A stretch of DNA of 64,000 bases from Candidatus Kaiserbacteria bacterium (GTDB lineage: Bacteria; Patescibacteriota; Minisyncoccia; Phycocordibacterales; UBA2100): positions 27,559 through 91,558 of the forward strand of contig CAVYCR010000003.1 of NCBI GenBank assembly GCA_963767115.1. The letters are read 5' to 3'. The position numbers were made by a program, and so were the translations under genes. A model generated the notes under the pieces. It made no database searches. It saw nothing but the letters and a program-made list of their open reading frames with translations, and was not told where the DNA came from. Shown here in pieces: positions 1-59,407 of the stretch. The stretch's first letter is position 1; every line of letters starts with the position of its first letter.

Positions 1-1536
1 CTCTTTGCGACCAAAGGCATCGACGCGCGCGCTGTCGAGATCGGCTCTGAAGCAGACGGCTACGAAAAAGGAATGGGCGCGGGACTTTTCGAAGACGGTA
101 CATCCATCATGGGCCGCATCTTTTTCTACAACGCCAAGAAAAACTGGTGGTCGCGCGCTGGAGTGCCCGAGAACATGCCTTCGGGAGAGCCCGGCGGACC
201 CGACAGCGAGGTCTTTTATGATTTCGGGACGCCTCATGACGAAAAGTTCGGCAAGCACTGCCATCCCAACTGCGATTGCGGCCGCTTCATGGAGATCGGC
301 AACTCCGTTTTCATGCAATATATCAAGAAAGAAGACGGTTCCTTCGTACTGCTTCCCAAGCAAAACGTAGATTTCGGCGGCGGCTTGGAGCGCATTACGG
401 CTGCATCCAATAATGACGCTGACGTTTTCACTATCGATGTGTTTCGGGAGATCATTCAACTCCTCGAGCATTTCTCGGGCAAAAAGTACGAAGGCGAACA
501 CAAGCGATCATTCCGCATCGTCGCCGACCACATGCGTGCTGCAACATTTATGCTTGCCGATGGCGTACGGCCCGGCAACAGCGCCCAAGGCTACGTATTG
601 CGCCGTTTGATCCGCCGCGCCGCCCAGCACGCACAGAAGCTCGGTGTGCAAAACGACTCCGGGAGTGAGAGTATGCTCAATCGTTGCGCGATCATCGTCA
701 TCGAGAAGTACAAAGGCGCATACTCGGAGCTTGGCGGCGAAGAAGCGTACCAGATGATAACGAGCGAGATCTGGAAGGAAGAGGTCCAGTTTGGTCACAC
801 TCTTGAGAAGGGCTTGAAAGAGTTCGAGAGAATAACAAAAAACAGTGAGCAAGGCGAAACCTTGCTCACGGGGGAGCAGGCGTTCACGCTCTTTACCACC
901 TATGGCTTTCCGTTTGAAATGACACGCGAAATCGCGATCGAAAAGGGGATTGCGGTCGACGAAGCCGCATTTCAGGAGTTGATGAAAAAGCACAGCGAAC
1001 TATCGCGTGCCGGTTCCGAACAAAAGTTCAAGGGAGGGCTTGCTGATCATTCCGAGAAGACGACGCGCTTGCATACGGCGCATCATCTTTTGTTACGTGC
1101 TTTGCAAAAAGTACTTGGCCCAGAAGTAAAGCAGCGCGGCAGCAACATCACCGCCGAGCGCCTGCGTATCGACTTCTCATACGGCGCCAAAATGACTCCG
1201 GAGCAGATCAAGCAGGTCGAAGAAATCGTCAACCAGAAAATCAGCGAGGCATTGCCGGTCATTCGCAGCACCTTGCCCAAAGAAGATGCCGAGAAGCTCG
1301 GCGCTGAGCACGAATTCGGCGCGAAGTATCCGGAGATGGTCTCGGTATATTCAGTAGGACCAAGTAGCGCGACGCCAGAAGATCCGCAATTCGACAAAGC
1401 GTTTTCGATAGAATTCTGCGGAGGTCCGCACGTGACAAACACGCGCGAGCTTTTTGCGGAGGCATCGCACTTCAAGATCCAGAAAGAAGAAGCAGTGGCA
1501 TCCGGCATCCGTCGTATCAAGGCGACACTTGTATAG
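1..1536 (+). CDS. alaS: alanine--tRNA ligase, C-terminal part (5' end lies outside the window)
   Basis: Frame 1 is open from nt 1 into track ORF 73..1536. AlaRS-like sequence with editing-domain motifs HTAHHLL (HxxxH) and EFCGGPHV (CxxxH). Confidence 0.9.
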
Positions 1537-6418: not shown

Positions 6419-6446
6419 GCACAATCAACAACAACCAACAATTTGC

Positions 6447-6560
6447 ATGAAAGTCAAAGCTTCAGTTAAAAAGATCTGCATGCACTGCCGCCACGTAAGG
6501 CGCCGTGGTGCTCTGCGTGTCATTTGTTCCAACCCGCGTCACAAGCAGCGACAAGGCTAA
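6447..6560 (+). CDS. rpmJ: 50S ribosomal protein L36
   Basis: [37 protein letters not shown], 37 aa, inside track ORF 6246..6560. Confidence 0.9.
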
Positions 6561-6585
6561 TCCTCGATCATCTTTTCTATTTACC

Positions 6586-6969
6586 ATGTTGCGTATTTCC
6601 GGCATTACCATTCCTGAAGACAAGCGCCTTGAGATCGGCCTCACGGCGGTCTACGGCGTCGGCCGCCCGCGTGCCCTTTCAGTACTGGCGAGCCTAGGTA
6701 TCGAAGCTGGCAAGCGTCCCAACGATCTCACGTCGGTCCAAGAATCGTCTTTGCGCGAAGCGATCGAGAAGTTCACGGTCGAAGGCGAGCTCAAACGCGA
6801 GATCAGCTCCAACATCCGCCGTCTCAAAGACATCAAATCGTTCCGGGGTTCTCGCCATATCAAGCGGCTGCCGGCGCGCGGCCAGCGTTCCAAGACCAAC
6901 TCCCGCACCGTACGCGGCAACGTGCGCAAGACCATGACGAGCGGCCGCCGTAAGCTCGAGAAGACATAA
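6586..6969 (+). CDS. rpsM: 30S ribosomal protein S13
   Basis: MLRISGITIPEDKRLEIGLTAVYGVGRPRA... Start at ATG 6586 within track ORF 6505..6969. Confidence 0.92.
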   Translation: MLRISGITIPEDKRLEIGLTAVYGVGRPRALSVLASLGIEAGKRPNDLTSVQESSLREAIEKFTVEGELKREISSNIRRLKDIKSFRGSRHIKRLPARGQRSKTNSRTVRGNVRKTMTSGRRKLEKT

Positions 6970-6986
6970 TGATAAAATCAAAAATA

Positions 6987-7044
6987 AAATCTCAAATCTC
7001 AAAACTAAATAGAGAAACGGATTTGAGATTTGAATTTTGAGATG
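6987..7044. repeat. AT-rich heptad repeat / imperfect inverted repeat (AAATCTC units and the complement GATTTGAGATTTGA)
   Basis: Spacer between rpsM and rpsK. aaaatctcaaatctcaaaac ... ggatttgagatttgaattttgagatg. Confidence 0.7.
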
Positions 7045-7059
7045 TAAATTTGTAAACCT

Positions 7060-7494
7060 ATGGGAAAAAAACGAATCATTCGAAAATCAGGAGGAACAGT
7101 AGACGCCGGCATGAAGTCGCGCGCGCTTGCACGTGTGGCCAAAAAGAACATTACGGCAGGTACTTTGCATATTCATGCGACCTACAACAACACCAAGGTC
7201 CTGCTTGCCGACAAGGGAGGCAACACCATCGCGTGGTCTTCTTCGGGAGCATTGGGATTCTCAGGGGCTAAAAAGGGCACGCCGTTTGCAGCCGCTAAGG
7301 TCGGAGAGCTTGTAGGCGACAAGGCAAACATCATCGGTATGAAGGAGGTCGAGGTAATCATTCGCGGCGTAGGCTCGGGTCGTGAGTCGGCGCTCCGCGC
7401 TTTTGCAGGCAAGGGCATCGACATCATGCGTATCGCTGATGACACCCCGGTCCCACACAACGGTCCGCGTGCTCCCAAGCCCCGAAGAATCTAA
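7060..7494 (+). CDS. rpsK: 30S ribosomal protein S11
   Basis: 144-aa S11-like sequence (LHIHATYNNTKVLLADKGGNTIAWSSSG...). Confidence 0.92.
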   Translation: MGKKRIIRKSGGTVDAGMKSRALARVAKKNITAGTLHIHATYNNTKVLLADKGGNTIAWSSSGALGFSGAKKGTPFAAAKVGELVGDKANIIGMKEVEVIIRGVGSGRESALRAFAGKGIDIMRIADDTPVPHNGPRAPKPRRI

Positions 7495-7500
7495 AAGGTC

Positions 7501-7587
7501 AAATCTAAAATCTCAAAACTATGTTACAAACTTTTTCAAAATATATTAGCTTCTCAATTAGATTTGAGATTTAACTTTTGAGATTTA
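7501..7587. repeat. second copy of the AAATCTN heptad / inverted-repeat spacer element
   Basis: aaatcta aaatctc aaaacta ... gatttgagatttaacttttgagattt, between rpsK and rpsD. Confidence 0.7.
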
Positions 7588-7597
7588 AAATATTTTT

Positions 7598-8209
7598 ATG
7601 TTGCTCGTAAAATCAAAATACAAGATCGCGAAGCGTCTCGGTGCGGGAGTCTTCGAGAAGACCCAGTCGCAAAAGTTCGCACTCTCCGAGGCGCGCTCCA
7701 GCAAGCGTAAACCCCGTGGTCGCGGCGGGTCTGACTACGGTCGCCAGCTCCTGGAGAAACAGAAGGTCCGTTATACCTACGGCCTTTCCGAGCGCCAGCT
7801 TTCGAACTATGCGCACGCCGCCTTCGAGGAGAAGGATCCTTCGGTCGCGCTTAATACTGCCCTTGAGATGCGAGCCGACAACGCTATCTATCGCGCAGGT
7901 CTTGCCTCGAGTCGTCGCGCCGGCCGCCAGATCGTCTCGCACGGCCACATCTTGGTCAACGGCACGCGCATCAAGAGCCCCTCATATGCGGTCAAAATTG
8001 GCGATGTAATTACCGTGCGACAGGGGAGTATTCAGAGTCCGCTTTTTGCTGGCCTCGCTGATCGCAATCCTGAATCCATGCGTGCCGTACCCAAGTGGCT
8101 CGATTTCAATGTCTCTACGCTTCGTGTAGAGGTCAAAGAGATGCCGACCTATGACGGTACCCTCGGCGGGTTGGATTATGCGACGGTATTTGAGTTTTAC
8201 AGTAGATAA
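7598..8209 (+). CDS. rpsD: 30S ribosomal protein S4
   Basis: 203-aa S4-like sequence with a C-terminal S4 RNA-binding domain. Confidence 0.92.
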   Translation: MLLVKSKYKIAKRLGAGVFEKTQSQKFALSEARSSKRKPRGRGGSDYGRQLLEKQKVRYTYGLSERQLSNYAHAAFEEKDPSVALNTALEMRADNAIYRAGLASSRRAGRQIVSHGHILVNGTRIKSPSYAVKIGDVITVRQGSIQSPLFAGLADRNPESMRAVPKWLDFNVSTLRVEVKEMPTYDGTLGGLDYATVFEFYSR

Positions 8210-8289
8210 TGTATAATCCGTTCCAATTTCATCTTTTTATCAGCAGTATTTGTCTTTTGCGCGTCACTAGCTAAATAATTAATCATCCT

Positions 8290-9262
8290 ATGTCCGACTA
8301 TCATATCGCACTTCCTAGCAAGCCCCGTGTCGTCTCGGAAACCGAGCGCAGCGGCGTCTATGAGATCGACGGCCTCTACCCGGGATACGGCAATACCCTC
8401 GGCAACTCGCTTCGCCGCATCATCCTCTCATCGCTTCCGGGCGCTGCTGTCACGCATGTAAAGATCCCGGGCGTGCCTCACGAGTTTTCCACGATCGAGG
8501 GCGTCAAAGAGGACGTCGTCACGATCCTTCTCAACATTCGCAAGATCCGCTTCCAGCTCCTCACCGACGAGCCGCAGACCATCACGCTCTCGGTGAAGGG
8601 CCCGAAGGAGGTCACTGCTGCCGACCTTAAGCTTCCCGGCCAAGTCGAAGTACTCAACCCTGAGCAGGTGATTGCCGAAGTAACCGGCAAGGTCAACTTC
8701 GAACTCGAGCTTCGCGCCGAGCGTGGCTTGGGTTACATCCCCAAGGAAGAGCACCAGAAGGAGCGTGTCGATATCGGCACCATCGCGATCGATGCGATCT
8801 TCTGCCCGATCCGCCGCGCCAACTACGAAGTCGAAAACATGCGCGTCGGCGACCGCACCAACTTCAATCGCCTGCGCATCATGATCGAGACTGACGGCAC
8901 GCTTCGCGCCGCGCGAAGCGCTTGAAAAGTCCATCGAGACGATGATCCACCAGCTCAAGGCCGTCGTCGGTTTCAAGGAAGAGGAAGTCGAGGAATCTAG
9001 CGCACAGGTCACTGATACGCGCATGACGCGCGAGGAGAAGGCCGCTCCGATGGACGCTGAAATGCTCAAGACCCGCATCACCGAGCTACAGCTCCCGCAG
9101 CGCGTCGAGCAGGCTCTCGACAATGCGTCGATCCGCACGGTCGGCGGTTTGGTCCGCAAGCGCGAGGACGATCTCCTTGCGATCGAAGGCCTCGGCCAGA
9201 AGGGTTTGCAGGATATCAAGCGCTCACTCTCCAACCTCGGTCTTACGCTGCGCTCGCAATAA
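8290..9262 (+). CDS. rpoA: DNA-directed RNA polymerase alpha subunit, interrupted by a +1 frameshift near 8905-8908
   Basis: Track ORF 8290..8925 is the alpha NTD (ends ...IETDGTLRAARSA*). The +1 frame, open from 8885, reads PREALEKSIETMIHQLKAV... and continues as the alpha CTD to 9262. Confidence 0.85.
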
Positions 9263-31897: not shown

Positions 31898-32089
31898 AAT
31901 CAATTTGCCCCGTATAATGAGGGAATATGGCAGAGGAAGTCAAAAGAAGCAAGCTAGACCATCTGATGTGTATTGAAAGAGGCTGCCGCGTGCGACTGCC
32001 TTTCCAGTACGAATCTGTACTGTGATCTTCGAAAGGAGGTATAAGTCAAGTATAAGTAGACGAGACGCGCTTAACGAAGGAGATGAGCC

Positions 32090-32329
32090 ATGGAGCAAAT
32101 CTGTCCTTTGAGTGCAGTAGGAGAATCTGAAGGAGTCTCACCTCACTGCAGGTCGTGTTTTCGCTCTATCGTCTGCCCGTTTGGACACCACGATCTAGGA
32201 GGAGAATCAGATGTGACTATGCATGCGGTTGGTGCAATGCAACAGCAGCCTACTATGCTCGCGTATCGCACTCCACGACAATTCCACCGTCGTGAACTTC
32301 CTGATCCTCTTACCTCAGATTGGAAGTGA
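32090..32329 (+). CDS. small Cys/His-rich hypothetical protein (79 aa)
   Basis: AAGGAG 8 nt upstream of the ATG. HCRSCFRSIVCPFGHH cluster. Terminator hairpin 44 nt after the stop. No recognisable homology. Confidence 0.35.
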   Translation: MEQICPLSAVGESEGVSPHCRSCFRSIVCPFGHHDLGGESDVTMHAVGAMQQQPTMLAYRTPRQFHRRELPDPLTSDWK

Positions 32330-32372
32330 TCCTATCTATACGCCGCCACTAGAGCGGGTCATTCACCTTAAA

Positions 32373-32400
32373 GCTTCCGGTTCTGCCGGAAGTCTTTTTG
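32373..32400 (+). terminator. Rho-independent terminator
   Basis: cttccgg-ttctg-ccggaag followed by tctttttg. Confidence 0.7.
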
Positions 32401-32426
32401 TGCATAAAGTCCATAAAGGAAGGTCT

Positions 32427-32473
32427 AAAAACACAAACCCCCAGCCTGAACAAAAGGTTCAAATGGCTGGGGG
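32427..32473 (-). terminator. Rho-independent terminator (minus strand)
   Basis: Minus strand reads cccccagcc-N18-ggctggggg then tttgtgttttt. The loop itself can pair (tgaac/gttca). Confidence 0.7.
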
Positions 32474-32955
32474 CGGGTGTATGAAGGCGGTTCGATACAC
32501 CACAGGAACAAGGGACCCGACCTCGCCCTTCTTGGCGGAAATAGTGAACGACGAGTGGTCTCCCTAGTCCGCTTACAATCGTATAACGAAAGTCCTTTCG
32601 CGCAAAGGGGATAAAATATGAGGTATGTGCTATCCTGCTGACGGCAGCCAGAAAGGAAGTCAAAATGGCCGGTAAATGGGAACACTTGAGGCCCGAATTT
32701 GAGCCGGAAATGAGTCTATGGGACAAATTGACTGAATGGTGGTACCTGCGCATCTATTATCCATTCATGGATTGGTGGAGAGGTCGTGGCGGCGGAGGCG
32801 GTCCACCACGCATGGCATGATCTACGAAAAGCCGTTCGGTCAATCCGGGCGGTTTTACTTATGTAAAAAGGGAAGCCCAGTTGAGCACAATTCTTTAGGT
32901 ATATATGTCGCAAAAGATATAGGTCGAGAATACCAACGTTTTATCAAAGCCTTAT

Positions 32956-32985
32956 AAAAGAAAAATCCCACGCACTTGGCATGGG
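32956..32985 (-). terminator. Rho-independent terminator after the DUF433-like gene
   Basis: Minus strand reads cccaug-ccaagug-cguggg then auuuuucuuuu, directly after the stop at 32996. Confidence 0.6.
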
Positions 32986-32995
32986 ACGAGGTCGC

Positions 32996-33214
32996 TCACT
33001 GTTGAATGAGGAAGTCTATCTTGTCGAGTTCCGCGACAAGACGCTTGTCCATCTCGATCAGAGAAAGAGGTTCGCCTGTGCCGAGCCAGACTCTGATGGC
33101 GGCATTCTCGATTTGGGCATGCGAGAGTCGTGGATAAAGACGTTGCGCCCCATCAACCATCATTGCACCGAGGATTCCTAAAGTTCGCGAACCACCCAAT
33201 GAAGGCTCACTCAT
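32996..33214 (-). CDS. DUF433-like small protein (antitoxin-like HTH); no partner gene found
   Basis: 72 aa. ...YPRLSHAQIENAAIRVW... resembles the DUF433 C-terminal motif. Confidence 0.45.
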   Translation of the reverse strand: MSEPSLGGSRTLGILGAMMVDGAQRLYPRLSHAQIENAAIRVWLGTGEPLSLIEMDKRLVAELDKIDFLIQQ

Positions 33215-33424
33215 AGTCGTCTCCTTACTATAGAGGAATTACTTAATAGATTATATATTAAATACCTAATCTGTCAATAAATTACTAAAATTCGCAAAAG
33301 GATATAGAGCGAGAGTGATTTAGGTTAACCAAAATATTAGCAATAAAATTGCAGTAATTTTAGTGTATTAACAGCATGGGTAAATTCATGCGCAATTAAG
33401 ACATCTATATGCTATAGTCCTTGT

Positions 33425-33610
33425 ATGAATTGGTGGAAAAGACTCGTAAATATTGGGCCAAACAACAATCTGGAAGATACAAATCCTGTAGAAAAAGAGG
33501 CTAATTCGTTGTTGCTTTCTGACTCTGATAGAAAGGAGATGGTTAGAAAAGCAGCGGAAGATTTTGCTGTTCGTTTTGAGAGTGTCATGAAAGACCTTGC
33601 AAAGACCTAG
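33425..33610 (+). CDS. putative antitoxin of the Doc pair
   Basis: 61-aa ORF ending 2 nt before the Doc ATG. No similarity to Phd/YefM recognised by eye. Confidence 0.45.
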   Translation: MNWWKRLVNIGPNNNLEDTNPVEKEANSLLLSDSDRKEMVRKAAEDFAVRFESVMKDLAKT

Positions 33611-33612
33611 TC

Positions 33613-34050
33613 ATGCCGTTTATATATCCTGATGATGATGACTTTAGGATATTTATCGGTGTAATTAAGAGTGATCAGTACCCGATTAGCAAGTACATTC
33701 CTGCTATAGATAACAATTGGTACAAAACGATCTGTGATTGTGTAGATTACGTACGCAATACAGCTCATTATGAGCAAAATGCAGAGCTTCAAGATTGTGC
33801 AGCGCGAATGTTGTACAAGGTTGCAAAAAGACACGAATTAGGTGACGGCAATAAACGAAGCGCAATCATAGCGGTATACCTATTCGTTATGTTAAACGGA
33901 TACTACTGTGGTGACCCTGCCGCATTAAAACGAGAGGCTATTAGAGCCGCTCGAAGCAAAGGCAGAACAAACGAAGAAATGATCCGGAAAAGAATTGCGA
34001 GAGTAATAGCTGCAAATATGTACCCTCACGGTGCTAGATTCCAAAAGTAG
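33613..34050 (+). CDS. doc: Doc-family toxin (Fic fold)
   Basis: HELGDGNKRSAIIAVYLF matches the Doc signature Hx(F/L)x(D/N)(A/G)NKR. The gene is AT-rich relative to the window. Confidence 0.75.
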   Translation: MPFIYPDDDDFRIFIGVIKSDQYPISKYIPAIDNNWYKTICDCVDYVRNTAHYEQNAELQDCAARMLYKVAKRHELGDGNKRSAIIAVYLFVMLNGYYCGDPAALKREAIRAARSKGRTNEEMIRKRIARVIAANMYPHGARFQK

Positions 34051-34528
34051 GCGGTGACGTTCTTTGATATCTAAATTTTGAGCAACTGATGAAAAGGCGA
34101 CTAACAACTCGGTACGCCGTAGAACTGGCCTTGGGGTTGGTCAGGGGACTTTTGAGGTTCTATCACGCACACCATGGACATCTATGCCCGTCGGCTAAAC
34201 TAGCGAGCAGGATGGTGCAAGGTTTGGGAAAAGCCAGAGCTGCTGTGCCAACGACTTGATTGCCTTATTTGCTCTAGGTATACGTCGCAAAAGATATATT
34301 GTGCGACGTATACGGTAAATGAACTCGGACATACCAGACCACTGCCCTGTCAAGTTATCCACAGGTCCTTTTCGGGAGCACGACCTTAAGGAAACCGCCT
34401 TCTCGTTCACTGTTCATGCTCAAGAAAATTCTTGATAATTATTTGCGGGGAGTGTGCCCGGGAAATTTAAAAGATATAATAGGGTGGGGTCGCAGGCAAA
34501 ACATACCGACTCCCCTGTCCCCTGCTTT

Positions 34529-41900: not shown

Positions 41901-44780
41901 TCACGCTCCGGTGATGACGAAATTCACCAAGCGATTAGGGACAATGATAACACGCGCAACACTCTTCCCCTCCAAGCGCGCAGCGACATTTTCTCGCGCA
42001 GCTGCTTCCACGATAGCTTTATCCGCGTCGGTCTCGATCTCGATCTCGCCGCGCACCTTGCCGTTGATCTGCACTACGACAGTCGATGTCTTGCCTTTCA
42101 TCTTCGAGATGTCCGCCGTAGGCCACGCCACAGAGCCAATGTACTCTTTCTTGCCCGCTGCTTCCCAGAGTTCTGCTGAGAGATGCGGGGCAAAAGGCGC
42201 AAGAAGCTGAAGAAACGTCTTGTACGCGGCAGGCGGTATCGAAGGAAGCGTCTCAAACTCATTGAGAAGGATCATCAGGGCAGAAACCGCGGTGTTCATC
42301 TTCAAGGCCTCAATATCATCGCCGACTTTTTGTATCGTTTGGTTGAGGAGCATCTCGGACTTTTCGGGAAGCGGCACGGAGGCATCCGTCTTCAAATCGT
42401 TCACGCGCTCGAGGAAGCGCCGGATGCCGATGATATTCGTCGTGCTCCACGGCTTCATGCTCTCGAGCGGGCCCATAAACATCTCGTACATGCGCACCGC
42501 GTCAGCGCCGTAGAGCGCCGAGCATTCGTCGGGATTCACGACATTACCTTTCGATTTTGACATTTTGGAACCGTCTTCGGCGAGAATCGTACCTTGGTGG
42601 CGAAGCTTGAGGAACGGCTCGCCAAAAGCTACGTAGCCGAGCTTCTGCAACACTTTGGTGAAGAAGCGCGCATACATGAGATGCAGCACCGTGTGCTCCG
42701 CACCACCCATATAGAGATCGACAGGCAGCCACTTGTCGAGCGCTTCGCGCGAAGCAAACTCCGTATCGTTGTGCGGGTCGGCAAAACGGAAGTAGTACCA
42801 GCTTGAACACACGAAGGTATCCATCGTGTCGACCTCGGGCGTCCAGCCTTTGCCGAAAATAGTTTCAGTACGATCTTTGAGTTCCTTCGACTGGCCCAAA
42901 GGCGAAACTCCCGTGGGCTTGAATTCTACATCGGTAGGCAAAAGCCACGGTAAATGTTCTTCGGGAATCGGATGTGCAGCACCTTGCGGATCGTAGACGA
43001 TCGGAATCGGCGCGCCCCAATAGCGCTGGCGCGAAATGAGCCAGTCGCGGAGTTTATATGTCGTCTTACGTCGACCGAATTTGTCGGTGATCAGCTTCTT
43101 TGCTTCAGGTGTCTCGAGGCGATTGAACTCTCCCGAGCCGGTAAGAGTGCCATTGCCCGTAAATAAAACATCCTCGCCATTGAGAGAGCGCAAAGCGTGC
43201 TGATGCGTGTCAGGAGTCAGGAACTTTGCTAACTCAGCTTTGGAAAGCCATAAAACATCATGGATCGCGTTTTCAGTGTCTGCAACGTCTTCTCGCGCAT
43301 CGTCCTCGAGCTCGAGATAAATAACGTGCGCATGCGCGTTGCGATTCGTCTTTTTTGGGACATGGTAAAATTTCCCGTGGACTACGCCAAAATCTTTGAC
43401 GTATTTGGCGTGTATGAATCCCGTCTCTTCACGAATTTCCATCTTGGCAGCTTCTTCCGGTGTCTGGCCCGTTTCGATACCACCCGTGATGAACGTACCC
43501 CATGCCACTTGTTTCCATTTGAGCGCGATATATTTTTCTTCAGACCAATGCTTCACGATCGCAATGATCGCTTCACGATGGTCAAACGGCTCGCCTTCTC
43601 TGATCTTGCCGGGTTCGGTCGTTTGCTCGTATGTCGGCTCGAGGACTTCCCTGATCGGCAGATCAAATTTCTTGGCAAACTGATAGTCGCGCTCGTCGTG
43701 CGCGGGCACCGCCATGATGGCACCGGTGCCGTAGCTACCGAGAACATAATCGGCAATATACATCGGGATCTTTTCACCGGTCGCGGGATTGACGGCAACG
43801 ACCCCTTTCAATTCAACACCCGTCTTATCCTTCGCGTCCGCCTGTCGATCAAGATCGGTTTTATTCTTGGTTGCTTCGACATATGCAGCGATCTCGTCGT
43901 TGTTTTGAAAGACCGTCCCGTGTCCGAGGGTAAAATCCACCCATGCGTGCTCCGGCGCAAGCACGAGATACGTCGCGCCGTAGAGCGTGTCGGGGCGCGT
44001 AGTGAAGACCGTGATGCGCGGCTTCGTGCCGTCGGTATCAACGCGATCGTTGAGCAGAGCATCGCCGAAATCGAGGTGGAAATCGATCTCCGCGCCCTCG
44101 CTTCTGCCAATCCAGTTGCGCTGGTTGGTCTTGGTCGACTCGGGCCAGTCAACGTGATCGAGATCATCGACGAGCGCGTCGGCAAAATCCGTGATCTTGA
44201 AGAACCATTGCTCGAGATCCTTCTGTATCACTTTGGCGCCGGAGCGCTCCGCGGTACCGTCGGGCAACACCTGCTCGTTGGCGAGCACCGTCTGATCGAC
44301 CGGGTCCCAGTTGACCTTGGCCTTCTTTTTATATGCGAGGCCGTTCTTGTAGAGCGTGAGGAAAAACCACTGCGTCCATCGGTAATACTCCGGCGTGTGC
44401 GTGCCGATCTCGCGCGGCCAGTCATACGAGAGCCCGAGGCCTTTCATTTGCGATTTGAATGTCTCGATCGCTTTAGCAGTCGTCTCTATCGGCGGCACGC
44501 CTGTCTTCACAGCGTAATTCTCTGCAGGCAGGCCGAAGGCATCCCACCCCATCGGGTGCAGGACGTTGAAGCCCTTCGCACGCTTGAAGCGACTGACGAT
44601 GTCGGTTGCCGTATACCCTTCTACGTGACCTACATGCAAGCCCGCGCCGGAGGGATACGGGAACATGTCGAGGATATAGCTCTTTGGAGATGCGGAATCG
44701 TCGGATACGGCGAAAGTCTTTTCTTCTTCCCATCGCTTCTGCCACTTCTTCTCGATCTTCTTATGATCGTAATTCTTCAT
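41901..44780 (-). CDS. leuS: leucine--tRNA ligase carrying an internal Nudix-domain insertion
   Basis: 959 aa with HVGH (HIGH), CP1 editing domain and KMSKS. A Nudix box GGIETGQTPEEAAKMEIREETGF sits at aa 433-455. Confidence 0.95.
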   Translation of the reverse strand: MKNYDHKKIEKKWQKRWEEEKTFAVSDDSASPKSYILDMFPYPSGAGLHVGHVEGYTATDIVSRFKRAKGFNVLHPMGWDAFGLPAENYAVKTGVPPIETTAKAIETFKSQMKGLGLSYDWPREIGTHTPEYYRWTQWFFLTLYKNGLAYKKKAKVNWDPVDQTVLANEQVLPDGTAERSGAKVIQKDLEQWFFKITDFADALVDDLDHVDWPESTKTNQRNWIGRSEGAEIDFHLDFGDALLNDRVDTDGTKPRITVFTTRPDTLYGATYLVLAPEHAWVDFTLGHGTVFQNNDEIAAYVEATKNKTDLDRQADAKDKTGVELKGVVAVNPATGEKIPMYIADYVLGSYGTGAIMAVPAHDERDYQFAKKFDLPIREVLEPTYEQTTEPGKIREGEPFDHREAIIAIVKHWSEEKYIALKWKQVAWGTFITGGIETGQTPEEAAKMEIREETGFIHAKYVKDFGVVHGKFYHVPKKTNRNAHAHVIYLELEDDAREDVADTENAIHDVLWLSKAELAKFLTPDTHQHALRSLNGEDVLFTGNGTLTGSGEFNRLETPEAKKLITDKFGRRKTTYKLRDWLISRQRYWGAPIPIVYDPQGAAHPIPEEHLPWLLPTDVEFKPTGVSPLGQSKELKDRTETIFGKGWTPEVDTMDTFVCSSWYYFRFADPHNDTEFASREALDKWLPVDLYMGGAEHTVLHLMYARFFTKVLQKLGYVAFGEPFLKLRHQGTILAEDGSKMSKSKGNVVNPDECSALYGADAVRMYEMFMGPLESMKPWSTTNIIGIRRFLERVNDLKTDASVPLPEKSEMLLNQTIQKVGDDIEALKMNTAVSALMILLNEFETLPSIPPAAYKTFLQLLAPFAPHLSAELWEAAGKKEYIGSVAWPTADISKMKGKTSTVVVQINGKVRGEIEIETDADKAIVEAAARENVAARLEGKSVARVIIVPNRLVNFVITGA

Positions 44781-50421: not shown

Positions 50422-51812
<1,391 letters not shown>

Positions 51813-51851
51813 TTACTTGATATTTCAACAAAAGTAAATTAGTGAAACTGA

Positions 51852-52160
51852 CTAAATGAATATAAGAGATATAAGTTGTGTAAAGCCAAAATATACAAAA
51901 GGAGCTATCCAAAACATTGAAAATATAATGCTTGTTGTGTATTGCTTTTTTGTTAGAAAATAACGACTAAGAAATGGAGCGACTATTAACAAGGCTGGTA
52001 TACCTACAATTACCAGTTCCCCCAAATTCTGATTCAAATTAGACTCACCCGGTGCTCCAAGTCCGGCAATTGCCCATAAATCAAAAAGTAGAGTGATCGG
52101 CATCACTATAAGTGTCGCAACGATCGATAGTGTAGATAGTTTTCGTGCTGTTGACTCCAT
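51852..52160 (-). CDS. small AT-rich 3-TM membrane protein inserted between atpG and atpD
   Basis: 102-aa hydrophobic ORF on the same strand as the atp genes, 1 nt after the atpG stop. Confidence 0.5.
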   Translation of the reverse strand: MESTARKLSTLSIVATLIVMPITLLFDLWAIAGLGAPGESNLNQNLGELVIVGIPALLIVAPFLSRYFLTKKQYTTSIIFSMFWIAPFVYFGFTQLISLIFI

Positions 52161-52161
52161 A

Positions 52162-53115
52162 CTATTTCATTGCTTCCATGCCAGACGTTATCTCCGAGAC
52201 CTCACGCGTGATCGCAGCCTGACGAGCCTTGTTGAACTGCCGCGTGTAGGCGTGCGCCATCTCCTTGGCCTTATCGGTCGCGTTTTTCATAGCGACACGG
52301 CGCGCGGAATGCTCTGAGGCCTTTGATTCCAAGACCGCGTGGAAGATCGCCACGTTGAGAAGTTGCGGTAGAATCACGGCGAGCACGGAATCAGCATCAG
52401 GCTCGATCGTGTATGCCGCCGGTGCCTTGAGCAAGGTTTCGCCTTGCTCAGACGCTTGAGGTGCATACTTGCCGCGCACCGGTCGGATCTCGCTTACGAT
52501 CGTACGCATTCCTTCTGGTGTGATCGGTACGATTTGACGCACTACAGCCTGCTGCTCAAAGGTCGAGATAAAATTGGTGTAGGTGATCATGCACTTCCCT
52601 ATCTCGCCAGCCTTGTGCCAAGCCATTACGAGCTCGGTGACTTTGCGAATATCGCTTTGCGAAACGTCATCAGAAAGATTTTCAAAGCGTTCACGCACAT
52701 CATACCCGCGCGAAGCGAAATACTCCGCTCCGCGCCGCCCGATTGCGATCATCACAATATCCGATGTAGCGATGTCCGACATCACTATTTCGGCTTCAAC
52801 CCTGCGTATAATCGAGCTATTCAAGGAGCCTGCGAGGCCTTTGTCGCTCGTGACAACGATAAAGCACGATTTTAGCGAGGAATTGACTGAGGCCGGGCCT
52901 CGGTCAGCAGACATGAGCGGGTGGTGCGAAAGGTCGACAGTGCCAGCAAGACGCTCAAGAACACTGAGCGCGGCGGCGGCGTATGCGCGGCCGTTGAGCG
53001 CGCGCTCCTGCGCCTTTCGCATCTTGACTGCGGAGACGGCCTCCATCGCGTGCGTGACGGTGCCCGTCTTCTTGTACGACTGGATCTTGAGCTTTATGTT
53101 TTTGAGGCTTGCCAT
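52162..53115 (-). CDS. atpG: F1 ATP synthase gamma subunit
   Basis: 317 aa. MASLKNIKLKIQSYKKTGTVTHAMEAVSAVKMRKAQ... and C-terminus ...AAITREVSEITSG. Confidence 0.93.
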   Translation of the reverse strand: MASLKNIKLKIQSYKKTGTVTHAMEAVSAVKMRKAQERALNGRAYAAAALSVLERLAGTVDLSHHPLMSADRGPASVNSSLKSCFIVVTSDKGLAGSLNSSIIRRVEAEIVMSDIATSDIVMIAIGRRGAEYFASRGYDVRERFENLSDDVSQSDIRKVTELVMAWHKAGEIGKCMITYTNFISTFEQQAVVRQIVPITPEGMRTIVSEIRPVRGKYAPQASEQGETLLKAPAAYTIEPDADSVLAVILPQLLNVAIFHAVLESKASEHSARRVAMKNATDKAKEMAHAYTRQFNKARQAAITREVSEITSGMEAMK

Positions 53116-53146
53116 GATGGATGTACCGACTTACGAAGTCCGTAAT

Positions 53147-54715
53147 TTACTTCGCTACGAAAAGATCGGCGTGCGCGAGGCGGAATTGTTCCATTGCGCG
53201 GCCAAGTTCTTTCTTGGAGTCATCAGAGAGTTGCGCTGACTTTTTGATCTCGGCGAGCGTGGCGGAGTGTTCGCCGTCGAGGTATTCGGCGAAGAGCGCT
53301 TCGACTTGCGTCACTTTGGTAAGCGGCACATCAATGAAGAATTTGGAATTGGCGGCATACAAGACGGCGACCTGACCCTCCAGTGGCAGCGGCTCGCCGT
53401 TTTTCTGCTTGAGTACTTCGACCATGCGCTGACCTGAGGCGATGCGGTCGGCAGTGGTCTTGTCGAGATCCTGCGCGAACTGCATGAACGCCTCGAGCTC
53501 TCGGAACTGCGCAAGCTCGAGCTTGAGGCCGCCTGCGACGGCTTTCATCGCCTTGGTCTGCGCGCTGGAGCCTACGCGTGAGACGGAGTTGCCTACATCG
53601 ATCGCGGGGCGGATGCCTTTGTTGAAGAGGTCGGTAAGGACGAATATCTGACCGTCGGTGATCGAGATCACGTTGGTCGGAATGTATGCGGAGATATCGC
53701 CTTCGAGCGTCTCGATGATCGGAAGCGCGGTGATCGAACCGCCGCCTTTCTCATCACTCAAACGGCACGCACGCTCGAGCAAGCGAGAGTGGAGATAGAA
53801 AATGTCGCCCGGATACGCCTCGCGGCCCGGCGGCCTGCGGAGCAAGAGCGAAAGTTCGCGATACGCGACGGCCTGCTTGGAGAGATCATCGTAAATGATA
53901 AGCACATCTTTGCCTGCGTCCATGAAGTACTCGCCGATAGCGACACCGGCAAATGGTGCGAGGTACTGAAGCGCTGCGGGGGCTGAAGCAGGTGCATCCA
54001 CGATGATCGTATATTCCAAAGCACCGCGCTCGCGAAGCTCCTGCACGATGCGTGCCGTTTTCGATTCCTTCTGGCCGATCGCCACGTAGATGCAGATCGG
54101 GCGCTTGTCGGCATCAATGCTCTTCTGGTTGATGATGGTGTCGATGGCGATGGTGGTCTTCCCTGTGCCGCGGTCGCCGATGATGAGCTCGCGCTGGCCG
54201 CGGCCTACGGGTATCATCGCGTCGATCGCCTTGATGCCGGTCTGCAAGGGCACTGTGACTGATTTGCGATCGATGACGCCGCTCGCTTCTCGCTCCACAG
54301 GCATCATCGTCACCTTCTTGAAAGGTCCTTTGCCGTCGATCGGCTCGCCGAGCGTATTGACTACGCGGCCGAGCAACTCTTCGCCAGAGGGCACACTAAG
54401 GACATTGCCGGTCGATTTGACCGTCATGCCCTCATAGACGCGCGAGCTCTCTCCGAGGATCGATGCACGTATGCCGTCTTCTTCGAGGTTGAGCACGAGC
54501 CCATACAATGCACTACGGTCCTCCATGCTTTCGGACAATTTCTCGCCCTTGCCTTCTTCGAAGATGAGGACCTCGCTCATGAGAGCTTTGGAGAAGCCAT
54601 CGATAGAGACGACACCATCGCCGACAGCTGTGACGCGGCCCACATGCAGAGCTTCCGCCTTCGGCGTATAGCCCTCGATCTCCTTGATGATCTTTTCGAC
54701 GATTGATGAATCCAT
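53147..54715 (-). CDS. atpA: F1 ATP synthase alpha subunit
   Basis: Walker A GDRGTGKT. 522 aa. Confidence 0.97.
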
Positions 54716-54760
54716 AAAATAGCTTGTAGGTTTTAGCTTGTAGCTTGTAGGAATGCAAAT

Positions 54761-55159
54761 CTACAAAGAAGCGGCACCGACTGCACGATTATACATGTCC
54801 AGTAAATAATGCTTGTAGCTCGCATCGATCAGGTGTTCCCGGCCCTCGAGGCGCCATCCGCCGATCAGAGTCTCGTCGACACGCGTCTCGATGTGGCCGG
54901 CGTCGATCTCAAAATCGATCAATGCTGCTGCAGCGTCGTTGCGCAATCGATGCTCGTGCTTGTTGTCGGCGATCGTGATCGTCATGAGAGAATTCTTCTC
55001 TTGAGTCTGCGCGAGGCGCTTGAATGCAAAGTGAATGCGCGGCCAGAGGTCGAGCCTGCCGCTACGCTCAAGTGACTGGTGGAGATTGCGTACCGCATCT
55101 TGCGGCTTTGCTCCTGACTCTATAGTGCGCCAAAGCGCTTGAGCGTATTCGTTTTCCAT
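54761..55159 (-). CDS. atpH: F1 ATP synthase delta subunit (short, OSCP-like)
   Basis: 132 aa. Assigned from its position between atpF and atpA and weak OSCP-like sequence. Confidence 0.7.
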   Translation of the reverse strand: MENEYAQALWRTIESGAKPQDAVRNLHQSLERSGRLDLWPRIHFAFKRLAQTQEKNSLMTITIADNKHEHRLRNDAAAALIDFEIDAGHIETRVDETLIGGWRLEGREHLIDASYKHYLLDMYNRAVGAASL

Positions 55160-55161
55160 AT

Positions 55162-55612
55162 TTAGGCGGATTTCTCTCGCAAGATCTTTTCGGCTCCGAG
55201 CATTGCGGCGCGCGCGATCTCCTTCTGGCTGCTGAGAAGCGCCTGACGCTGTGCTTCATCGGCACGCGCTGATGCATCCTCGAAGCATGGCCTGCGCCTT
55301 CGCTTCGGCGGCGCGGACGATTTCCATACCTTTATCGTCGGCACGCTGCCGTGCGGAGAGCGAAAGCGCTTCGGCTTCGCGCGCTGCAGCGCCGACGATC
55401 CCCTCGCCTTCAACTTTCGCCGCTTGCAGGTTGCGCCCCGCCGCCTCGGCTTGGCGCATGCCTTCAGCGATCTTTTCGCGGCGCTCGTCGATCATTGAGG
55501 TGATCGGTTTGTAGAGAAAATACGAGAGCGCGGTGAGCAGCACGCCGAAATTGATCGCCTGAATAATCAGGAGACGCCAATCGATGCCGAATGCTGCGAA
55601 GAGTTGAGACAT
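55162..55612 (-). CDS. atpF: Fo ATP synthase b subunit, interrupted by a +1 frameshift near 55281-55285
   Basis: The N-terminal TM plus coiled coil in track ORF 55256..55612 ends ...AQAMLRGCISACR*. The +1 frame continues EDASARADEAQRQALLSSQKEIARAAMLGAEKILREKSA* and stops 2 nt before the atpH ATG. Confidence 0.8.
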
Positions 55613-55615
55613 GGT

Positions 55616-55685
55616 TAGCTTCTAGCTTCTAGCTTCTAGCTTCTGGGGAATTTCTAATCCCTAGCGGCTAGCCACTAGAAGCTAG
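55616..55685. repeat. 4 perfect TAGCTTC heptads plus a downstream complementary CTAGAAGCTAG
   Basis: 55616-55643 is (tagcttc)x4. 55675-55685 can pair with it. Lies in the spacer between atpE and atpF. Confidence 0.8.
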
Positions 55686-56102: not shown

Positions 56103-56872
56103 TTAATGCGCCGCGTGAGGATCCGTGATGGCGAGCTTGATAAAGAAAAGCGTGAGGAGCGCGAAGACCGCGGCTTGGACGAAACCGACGAATATTTCAA
56201 AGGCCATGAGGGGCGCCGGCACGATGTACGGCGCGAAATAGGTCGCAACCGCGATAAGGACTTCGCCCGCAAAAATGTTGCCGAAGAGACGAAAAGAGAA
56301 TGAGACGAAGCGCGAAAGCTCGGAGACAAATTCGATGATGCCGATCGATGAAGTTGAGCAAGCGGTTGCCGAGTCCCTCTCCGCGGAAGGTGAAGAATTT
56401 GCCCGCGTAGCGTCCAGAAGCCTACGGCGATGATGCCGAAGACTTCTATAGAGATCACCGAGATGATCGCAAGCGTGAGCGTCACATTGAGGTCGGTGTT
56501 GACGCTGCGCAGAAGCGGCGTGAAGGTACCGTCAGCAGCATAGAAGCCGACTGAGCCGATGCCCGGCGTGAATTCGATCAGGTTGGACGTCGCGATGAAG
56601 AGGAAGATCGTGATGAGAAGCGGGAAAGCGCGTCGCGACCATTTTTCGTCCTCGAGCGTCTCCTTGATGAAGTCCTGCATGTAGATCACGAGCGATTCGA
56701 GGAGTGCTTGGAAGCGGCCCGGCACGTACGAGAGCCTGCGTCGCACCACGATCGCTGCTATGATGAGGATAGTGATCGCGACCCAGCTCGTGAGCAGGGT
56801 GTTGGTGATAGGAATCCCCCACAATGTGCCTATCTGCTCGGGCGCGAGCATGACTGAAATTCCGCTTTGCAT
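56103..56872 (-). CDS. atpB: Fo ATP synthase a subunit, interrupted by two +1 frameshifts (near 56417-56420 and 56350-56353)
   Basis: The N-terminal frame is good to ...IEVFGIIAVGF. The next frame reads GRYAGKFFTFRGEGLGNRLLNF. The third frame reads IGIIEFVSELSRFVSFSFRLFGNIFAGEVL...DPHAAH*, stopping at 56103. The Ser/Arg-rich tail of the track ORF (to 56075) is out of frame. Confidence 0.8.
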
Positions 56873-58465: not shown

Positions 58466-58537
58466 GGCCCTATCGTCTAACGGTTAGGACGCCGGCTTCT
58501 CAAGCCGTTAATCGGGGTTCGATTCCCCGTAGGGTCA
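58466..58537 (+). tRNA. tRNA-Glu (anticodon CUC); CCA not encoded
   Basis: Manual cloverleaf. Acceptor GGCCCTA/TAGGGTC (one G-U pair), D-arm GTCTAACGGTTAGGAC, anticodon loop TTCTCAA, T-arm CGGGG-TTCGATT-CCCCG, discriminator A. Confidence 0.85.
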
Positions 58538-58585
58538 CAAAAATAACGAGACCGATGCATGTCATCGGGCGAATCTATTTTTGTA

Positions 58586-58714
58586 GGCCCTACGGGGAAT
58601 CGAAAGACGGAGGCGAGGTCCCCTGCAAGCTTGCAGGGCGCCCAGTCAGGGTCGTGGAATTTTTGGAGCGACGGCGACAAAAATATCCCTGACCGATCCC
58701 CGTAGGGTCACAAA
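58586..58714. repeat. structured ~130-bp segment bounded by an inverted and a direct copy of the tRNA-Glu 3' end
   Basis: 58586-58604 ggccctacggggaatcgaa is inverted relative to the tRNA T-arm/acceptor. 58694-58714 cgatccccgtagggtcacaaa is direct. Perfect 18-bp palindrome ccctgcaagcttgcaggg at 58621-58638. Confidence 0.75.
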
Positions 58715-58718
58715 TTTA

Positions 58719-59075
58719 TTGCACCACATCTTTACATCTTTTGCGGGGTCTGACCCCCATTCGCTCGTTGCGCTGGCCAGAGTGATCGCATTTGTGCTCG
58801 CAATCGGTTTTTCTTATTTTGGCGATATGCACATAGCGGGAGGTCCTATGCGAGCTGCGATACTGGCCGGTATCGTTGCCGTCTTCGCAGTGAGGTACCC
58901 TGACGCATCAAGGTGGCTCATGATCATACTTATATGTTTTGAGCCGGAGCTTCAGGCCACGACGCAAGGTGAGTCCCTGATATTCGTGTTCATTTGTATG
59001 GTACTTCTATTCCCAATGCTCTTCACCCTTTGCCTAAACCAGATCAGATCTGACCGAGGCGAAAGGATCGGATGA
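58719..59075 (+). CDS. hypothetical small membrane protein (TTG start)
   Basis: 118-aa hydrophobic ORF. ATGA overlap with the next ORF suggests translational coupling. Confidence 0.35.
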   Translation: MHHIFTSFAGSDPHSLVALARVIAFVLAIGFSYFGDMHIAGGPMRAAILAGIVAVFAVRYPDASRWLMIILICFEPELQATTQGESLIFVFICMVLLFPMLFTLCLNQIRSDRGERIG

Positions 59076-59407
59076 AGAAACTAGCGAAAGAGCGGCATCG
59101 GCTCGACTTCGTGGCCGTGCCCGCCACACAGACGTCGCACCTTCTCGTAGTGCGGCTGATGCATGATGGCTCGGTCTGCGTGCGGCCATACGGACCTATG
59201 CCATCCAAAAGAGTAACGTCGATGCAGGCGCCTGCACGGATACGCTGGTGGAAGCGGCATCTCCCCTACGCCCGGGGAAGGATTCGCTGGTATGATTACA
59301 TATCGAAATATGAGCGGAAGATATATCTGAAATCAATCGGGATTCGTGCTCCATGGAGACAGCACATCAGAGACATCGATGAATACGCGCAAAGAGCCGC
59401 CCGTTGA
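59072..59407 (+). CDS. hypothetical basic Arg/Trp-rich protein
   Basis: 111 aa. The stop codon lies in the loop of a good terminator. Confidence 0.4.
   Translation: MKKLAKERHRLDFVAVPATQTSHLLVVRLMHDGSVCVRPYGPMPSKRVTSMQAPARIRWWKRHLPYARGRIRWYDYISKYERKIYLKSIGIRAPWRQHIRDIDEYAQRAAR

Follow-up and report, generated by a model that had tools for sequence, protein, structure and literature searches.

A one-base insertion in rpoA of a Kaiserbacteria-type bacterium as a probable consensus error between coexisting haplotypes

CUU is the slippery P-site codon of the +1 frameshift sites of prfB, which encodes RF2, and of Ty1 (CUU-UGA-C and CUU-AGG-C, respectively). Naturally split subunits are known for RNA polymerase, as in the case of cyanobacterial and plastid rpoC1/rpoC2; the known splits are located at tolerated boundaries and are conserved throughout a clade. 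Frameshifts can also derive from small consensus indels, which are known both in long-read assemblies and in MAGs (PMC9262707; bioRxiv 10.1101/2021.08.23.457338), or from quasipalindromes, which are hotspots for template switching and give rise to frameshifts and complex changes (PMC7202029, PMC3820800).

The DNA considered here, indicated as the window throughout, is a stretch of 64,000 nucleotides; Pfam matches, homologues and GTDB loci identify its host as a Paceibacterota/Kaiserbacteria-type CPR bacterium. The operon region around rpoA comprises rpmJ, rpsM, rpsK, rpsD, rpoA, rplQ, rplM and rpsI. The rpoA gene carries an extra base, which is most likely an undecoded one-base insertion due to a consensus error at a position where two haplotypes coexist.

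The break in rpoA and its intact counterparts

A first-pass annotation of the window had described rpoA as split between two frames, and translation confirmed this: the first frame runs from 8290 to a TGA at 8923-8925, while the +1 frame is open from 8885 and extends to 9262 (Table 1). The upstream ORF, 8290-8925, encodes 211 aa and has the C-terminal end ...IETDGTLRAARSA immediately before the TGA; the +1 frame, preceded by a TGA at 8882-8884, reads ...APREALEKSIETMIHQLKAV... and reaches its stop at 9260-9262. Pfam scans assign RNA_pol_A_bac and RNA_pol_L to the upstream ORF and RNA_pol_A_CTD to the downstream one. The removal of a single base restores a normal alpha subunit, again as had been reported: when 8905 is dropped, the product has 323 aa and 99% identity to the intact protein P0001. 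The junction peptides of the restored frame are ...ETDGTLAPREALEK... and ...IETDGTLAPREALEK....

Table 1. Coordinates of the features of rpoA and of the atp operon in the window
Feature	Position	Strand	Evidence or remark
rpoA codons 1-205, upstream frame	8290..8904	+	RNA_pol_A_bac 57-171 and RNA_pol_L 31-207 (Pfam), translation; covers the insert domain and the larger part of the dimerisation domain
Extra base (T, T or C of ACG CTT C GCG)	8903..8905	+	...GTLAPREAL..., the form of every close relative, is restored by deletion of any one
Perfect 10+1+10 palindrome CGCTTCGCGC-C-GCGCGAAGCG spanning the extra base	8900..8920	+	Left arm imperfect in relatives
Direct copy of the derived 11-mer GCTTCGCGCCG	8709..8719	+	192 nt upstream, same gene, in frame as L-R-A
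TGA closing the upstream frame	8923..8925	+	After six out-of-frame codons (RAARSA)
rpoA codons 206-323 and stop, +1 frame	8906..9262	+	RNA_pol_A_CTD (Pfam); end of the dimerisation domain, linker, CTD
ATG (Met218)	8942..8944	+	Start of a separate 106-aa ORF (P0381) in the gene calls of the deposited record
atpF (ATP synthase b subunit), one extra sense-strand A at 55280	55162..55612	-	ATG CTT CG[A] GGA; L086 has ATG CTT CGG GAT
Fifth extra A, atpF-atpH spacer	55161..55163	-	AAA in the window, AA in L086; no CTTC nearby
atpB (ATP synthase a subunit), two +1 breaks	56103..56872	-	Extra A at 56413 (sense TGG[A]CGC); extra base within 56345-56349 (sense CTTC-ATCGA-TC)

The break had been assigned to the linker between the NTD and the CTD, a position that does not hold: it follows residue 205 and lies within the dimerisation domain defined by Pfam. 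The last correct residue in the upstream frame is L205, about 20 residues short of the NTD end. On the truncated ORF the RNA_pol_L match covers profile positions 5-59 of 74 with 54.3 bits, and on the repaired protein it covers positions 5-74 of 74 with 67.5 bits, reaching residue 222; moreover, E. coli alpha-NTD crystal constructs (e.g. 1bdf) align with residues 11-227 of the repaired protein. The extension of RNA_pol_L to residue 222 and of the NTD constructs to residue 227 thus places the break away from the linker. As the domain is folded and the protein essential, a break that cuts through it counts in favour of an artefact.

The same position weakens the proposal of a functional split, since the break is off the linker and deprives the dimerisation domain of the NTD of its last helix region. 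A genuine split gene would yield a 211-aa N-terminal polypeptide and a 106-aa CTD polypeptide, both functional, the second starting from an ATG at 8942. This ATG is present, as had been claimed, 17 nt past the TGA, and termination-reinitiation is conceivable; both ORFs were annotated by the gene caller of the deposited record, and the CTD is intact. However, residues 206-217 are in neither product, the first product ends with six wrong residues and the interruption falls in the dimerisation domain rather than in the linker. The sequence upstream of 8942 is GC-rich and coding, unlike the AT-rich leaders that precede the rpoA and rplQ starts, and no relative has a split gene among 120 homologues and 80 GTDB loci. 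The resemblance to rpoC1/rpoC2 is that one subunit appears as two adjacent ORFs; differently from those splits, the rpoA break runs through a domain and is seen in one assembly only. A functional split is therefore scarcely credible.

In all of the 120 best database homologues, rpoA encodes a single protein of 320-338 aa. Similarly, the 80 GTDB loci, from a set with one genome per species in which the species of the window is absent, all match over residues 1-323, and the motif ETDGT-x-x-P-[RKHN]-[EQD]-A is in frame at every GTDB locus where the junction peptide was found. Relatives have T-[LI]-A-P-R-E at the junction, encoded for example by ACG CTT GCG CCT or ACG CTC GCG CCG; the window reads ACG CTT C GCG CCG, and the deletion of either a T or the C of CTTC brings TLAPRE back. 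On these sequence comparisons, the organism almost certainly makes a normal alpha subunit of 323 aa. A comparison with rpoA of the closest genomes had been suggested in the first-pass annotation: all of them are intact, and so are the contigs of the same strain, although these carry another haplotype at the sites in question.

The same-strain comparison was based on Logan k-mer contigs from run ERR11630394 (L001, L086 and L087). L087 matches 51330-53675 of the window, 2346 nt, with 100% identity; L001, which covers rpoA, has no differences in 6446-8448 and 99.46% identity overall; L086 has 99.6% identity to the window over 54217-55645 and two bases fewer. In L001 rpoA is in frame, with GGC ACC TTG GCG CCG, and at the break the window differs from it by one inserted base and by a G>C change at 8905. 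It had been argued that raw reads with one base fewer would leave a plain assembly error; the ERR11630394 contigs do have one base fewer at both rpoA and atpF, which comes close to that result, although they are contigs and not reads. Indeed, the Logan contigs carry the other haplotype exactly in the indel patches, and what they show is an in-frame allele in the population, not that the base is missing from reads of the window's haplotype.

Substitutions between the window and L001 are concentrated: 16 of 18 are inside 8449-9154, a 700-nt patch in rpoA, and none is found in the 2 kb upstream. The patch corresponds either to a second haplotype or to a recombined segment, with mostly synonymous changes. 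Thirteen of its 16 substitutions are synonymous and in third position, including all three located downstream of the break when they are read in the +1 frame; the latter finding indicates that the downstream part evolved as coding sequence. The comparison thus indicates that two rpoA haplotypes exist in the population. The frameshifted allele was sought elsewhere with an exact 38-mer adjoining the site, which gave no matches in JGI metagenome contigs; the haplotype of the window was not found in an in-frame version either, and the relatives carry the forms ACC TTG, ACG CTT, ACG CTC and others.

Insertions in the atp operon and the CTTC motif

The rpoA break had been described as one of four +1 shifts in the window. 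With a frame-switch HMM that had been trained on long ORFs, exactly four non-boundary switches were counted on the coding strands, one in rpoA (8908), one in atpF (55287) and two in atpB (56418 and 56349); all of them are +1, and no -1 break was detected by the HMM in the window. Further coding breaks were not found by Pfam scans of essentially all ORFs or by tblastn of relatives' ORFs against the window.

The atpF gene is intact in L086, where it encodes 149 aa (P0361). The two atpB shifts are 65-70 nt apart, and the gene is read in three successive frames, ...AVGFW, RYAGKFFTFRGEGLGNRLLNF and IGIIEFVSELSRF..., respectively. When two bases are removed, the atpB product has 255 aa, the same length as in the closest relatives, and gives a full-length Pfam ATP-synt_A match of 142.9 bits, compared to 75.9 before repair. 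At the first atpB site, only the A of TGG-A-CGC can be the extra base, since the flanking W and RY match the relatives; no 0-frame stop is nearby, and the wrong frame continues for 113 codons.

With the extra A in the atpF-atpH spacer, five indels are recognised with respect to relatives or to same-strain contigs: in all five the window has the additional base, always outside homopolymers, and its 197 runs of at least 5 nt are free of frameshifts. Four of the five, namely the three coding insertions of the atp operon and the spacer one, cluster within 1.25 kb, and the insertions for which a comparison was available all sit in haplotype-divergent patches. After repair, rpoA, atpF and atpB are each colinear with their relatives and have full-length Pfam matches, with no other decay visible. 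Pseudogenisation of the atp operon was considered and discarded, the repaired genes being full length and conserved.

Other differences were noted in the same region. Codon 41 of atpA (54591-54593, minus strand) is TTC (Phe) in the window, whereas a Leu codon, TTG or another, occupies this conserved position in L086 and in relatives. This is one of two G-to-C differences that convert a CTTG of the Logan contigs into a CTTC of the window, the other one being at 8905 in rpoA. In the atpE-atpF spacer (55616-55644), just upstream of the atpF start, the 15-nt sequence TAGCTTCTAGCTTCT (plus strand) is repeated at a 14-nt offset.

All four coding shifts had been reported to lie on a sense-strand CTTC. 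This is correct insofar as a CTTC occurs 0-5 nt upstream of each extra base; however, phase and spacing vary, and a common decoding site does not emerge. The motif is phased as CTT|C in rpoA and atpF, and as C|TTC at both atpB sites. The probability that four random coding windows of 10-12 nt share any 4-mer is 4e-4 to 1e-3, and the association of CTTC with the four coding breaks is probably not due to chance.

The motif bears on programmed +1 recoding, a possibility raised by the first-pass annotation, in which ribosomes or an RNA-level process would skip a base near CUUC in rpoA, atpF and atpB, leading to full-length proteins. The four breaks are all +1, with no -1 counterpart, and all are in highly expressed essential genes; the CTTC precedes the break by 0-5 nt on the sense strand in every case, even though rpoA and the atp operon are on opposite strands, and conservation is perfect in the sequences that follow the breaks. 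The rpoA and atpF sites, and only these two, also share with prfB and Ty1 a CUU followed by the base to skip. Differently from prfB and Ty1, however, they lack both a stop or rare codon in the A site and a Shine-Dalgarno-like stimulator upstream, they are not conserved among orthologues, and their heptamer-like context is decoded normally elsewhere in the window. Indeed, intact genes of the window contain in frame 66 CTT-C, 13 CTT-CGN and 6 CTT-CGC, and one such in-frame occurrence is in rpoA itself, around 8410. The codons in the A site of the 0 frame are ordinary, CGC being the commonest Arg codon (513 of 951).

The recoding interpretation is further contradicted by the differences among the sites. 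The CTTC phase is not uniform, with two sites each way; the base to be skipped is at a varying distance, from 0 to 5 nt after CTTC, and at the first atpB site it is the A of UGG-A-CGC, where a nearby 0-frame stop is lacking. A search for a downstream RNA structure shared by the break sites found none, and the fifth insertion is in a spacer, with CTTC not near. The shift is not conserved: the other haplotype of the same strain and all relatives are in frame, and this lack of conservation brings programmed recoding close to refutation. The absence of the shift from every relative, the common A-site CGC and the variable CTTC phase thus leave the proposal of programmed frameshifting unsupported, and recoding of this kind is considered very unlikely.

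Specific slippage models were also examined and rejected. A single slip site at CTTC disagrees with the different phase and spacing of the sites, and A-site CGN is not a plausible hungry codon, given that CGC is the commonest Arg codon. An m1G37-type slip at CUN/CGG would give the alternative junction peptides GFWTLAGKF and LNFIDGIIE, which contradict conserved residues. Quadruplet decoding, RNA editing and transcriptional slippage do not fit either: a consistent 4-base codon is not observed, the extra bases are T/C versus A, and homopolymers are not involved.

In a more specific form of the recoding interpretation, this Kaiserbacteria lineage would truly carry the rpoA, atpF and atpB insertions, recently acquired and restricted to one haplotype, and would correct them by CUUC-linked +1 recoding or by base skipping at the RNA level; such a scenario is extremely improbable. 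If the breaks were decoded, they would be the first case, for a CPR bacterium, of +1 recoding that acts on several genes, with effects on both core transcription and ATP synthesis; the evidence points in the opposite direction.

Origin of the extra bases

Three readings of the rpoA break had been offered, and the first of them, a plain indel or assembly error, provides the best fit, with intact contigs from the same strain and intact relatives. In the proposed mechanism, two closely related haplotypes of the same population would have been collapsed in the deposited consensus and, at SNPs or multi-nucleotide differences, both alleles would have been stacked, always with the addition of one base. 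Thus, in atpF the stacking of CGG and CGA would produce CG-A-G; at the second atpB site GTC and ATC (Val/Ile, both found in relatives) would produce ATC-G-A-TC; in rpoA ACC TTG, from the L001 haplotype, and ACG CTC, found in several relatives, would produce ACGCTTC. In a variant of this explanation, the base would have been added by a polymerase template switch in the quasipalindrome during library preparation or sequencing. Allele stacking would account for the bias towards insertions, for the lack of homopolymers, for the co-location with divergent patches and for the intact same-strain contigs. A consensus error is also supported by the absence of the rpoA insertion from all relatives and from the independent same-strain assembly, and by the presence in the window of four more single-base insertions of the same kind.

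Consensus indels in long-read and mixed-strain assemblies are artefacts to which IDEEL-type tests and proovframe are directed (PMC9262707; 10.1101/2021.08.23.457338), and the window resembles these cases in that conserved genes are split into adjacent ORFs, several per contig, and that the splits are gone in an independent short-read k-mer assembly. Differently from the usual artefacts, the five indels of the window are exclusively insertions outside homopolymers, located in haplotype-divergent patches and near CTTC at the coding sites. A homopolymer-type error, of nanopore or 454 origin, was rejected, none of the 197 runs of at least 5 nt being affected.

Some findings speak against this explanation. 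Non-homopolymer insertions are atypical as nanopore errors; the first atpB site (TGG[A]CGC) fits the stacking model only if a switch of Arg codon family is assumed; and the CTTC association (P about 1e-3) is left unexplained by stacking. Furthermore, the perfect 21-nt palindrome at the rpoA break, together with an 11-mer identical to one located 192 nt upstream, suggests a templated event rather than a random stacking error.

The palindrome is of a rare kind: in the 64 kb, five perfect hairpins with a stem of at least 10 are observed and 0.5 are expected, and 8900-8920 is one of the five. Both differences from L001, the insertion and the G>C change at 8905, are within 5 nt of each other and turn mismatches into pairs with the right arm. 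In L001 and in the GTDB relatives the left arm has 1-3 unpaired or mismatched positions, as exemplified by CGCTCGCGC-C-GCGCGAAGC in the relative L017. The 11-mer GCTTCGCGCCG, created by the extra base, belongs to the class of 11-mers repeated directly within 300 nt, which cover only 0.42% of the window. For any of five indels to land in a palindrome of this sort, the probability is roughly 0.01, or about 0.05 given a pre-existing quasipalindrome. At the three atp sites, a search for hairpins or repeats perfected by the extra base revealed only trivial GAAG/CTTC pairings of 5-8 bp, and the 12-mer repeat adjoining the second atpB site reflects a repeated GII peptide. The rpoA site thus has the signature of a quasipalindrome event, namely a derived perfect inverted repeat with clustered changes that are all explained by copying of the other arm.

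This signature is compatible with a real and recent mutation, in which a template switch during replication would have converted a quasipalindrome (CGCT-CGCGC or C-CTTGGCGC) to CGCTTCGCGC; the resulting rpoA allele, frameshifted and probably without function, would belong to a sub-lineage that is variant or dying. Such an origin is favoured by the rarity of a perfect 10+1+10 palindrome, by the insertion and the G>C change both creating pairs, by the imperfect form seen in relatives (L017) and by the established role of quasipalindromes as template-switch hotspots (PMC7202029, PMC3820800). As at the E. coli and yeast hotspots, an imperfect inverted repeat is made perfect by a clustered change that includes a one-base insertion, with a frameshift as the outcome (PMC7202029, PMC3820800). 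In contrast to those systems, the signature is found at rpoA only and not at the three atp sites, the direction of the change is presumed, and the event may have occurred in vivo or in vitro. A mutation in the organism, moreover, would affect an essential gene and remove part of its dimerisation domain, while the consensus of a contig ought to represent the majority of a viable population; a comparable palindrome or repeat is missing at the other three coding breaks, four lethal or severe lesions arising at once in one lineage are implausible, and the same template switch could equally occur in vitro. A real mutation is thus unlikely.

The rpoA frameshift is therefore an accurate observation that most likely reflects ordinary biology and not a new form of decoding. 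Its value is that of a warning: the deposited contig contains at least five single-base insertions, with essential genes broken, in strain-heterogeneous patches and not in homopolymers. Fragments from the deposited record are already present in protein databases, namely the 211-aa and 106-aa pieces of rpoA and a 118-aa piece of atpF, and frameshift scans of such assemblies will go on flagging similar sites.

Other elements of the window

The leuS gene (41901-44780, minus strand) encodes a protein of 959 aa, with a NUDIX match that spans residues 429-527 and separates the editing domain from the remainder of the catalytic core. The region 31940-34528 is poor in ORFs, has a G+C content of 0.48 compared to about 0.54, and contains a Doc/Fic-like ORF of 145 aa (33613-34050); it sits where the gene orientation changes from mostly plus to mostly minus. 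GC skew across the window, calculated to relate strand bias to replication, was uninformative.

An 18-nt direct repeat, TCCCCGTAGGGTCACAAA, is found on the plus strand at 58524-58541 and 58697-58714; its first copy overlaps the 3' end of the gene for tRNA-Glu(CTC) (58466-58538), and the arrangement could be an attachment-site duplication. The repeat is followed by two small ORFs without Pfam matches (58719-59407).

A perfect 23-nt hairpin, TGAGCAAGG-CGAAA-CCTTGCTCA, is present twice, at 846-868 (plus strand) in alaS and at 52428-52450 (minus strand) in atpG. Each copy is in frame on the sense strand of its gene and is translated as SEQGETLL, the two genes being unrelated; the alaS and atpG genes of relatives are without the hairpin, and the proteins of the window are about 4-5 aa longer at these positions. 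For atpG, the copy is present also in the independent contig L087, which confirms it. The exact 23-mer was also found in 11 JGI metagenome contigs (L088-L098), with unrelated flanks and up to three copies per contig; some of these copies are intergenic, and others are in open frames reading EQGETLL, for example in a uracil-DNA-glycosylase-like ORF (L091). The hairpin resembles a tiny palindromic element of the REP/RPE kind, with tolerance of in-frame insertion.
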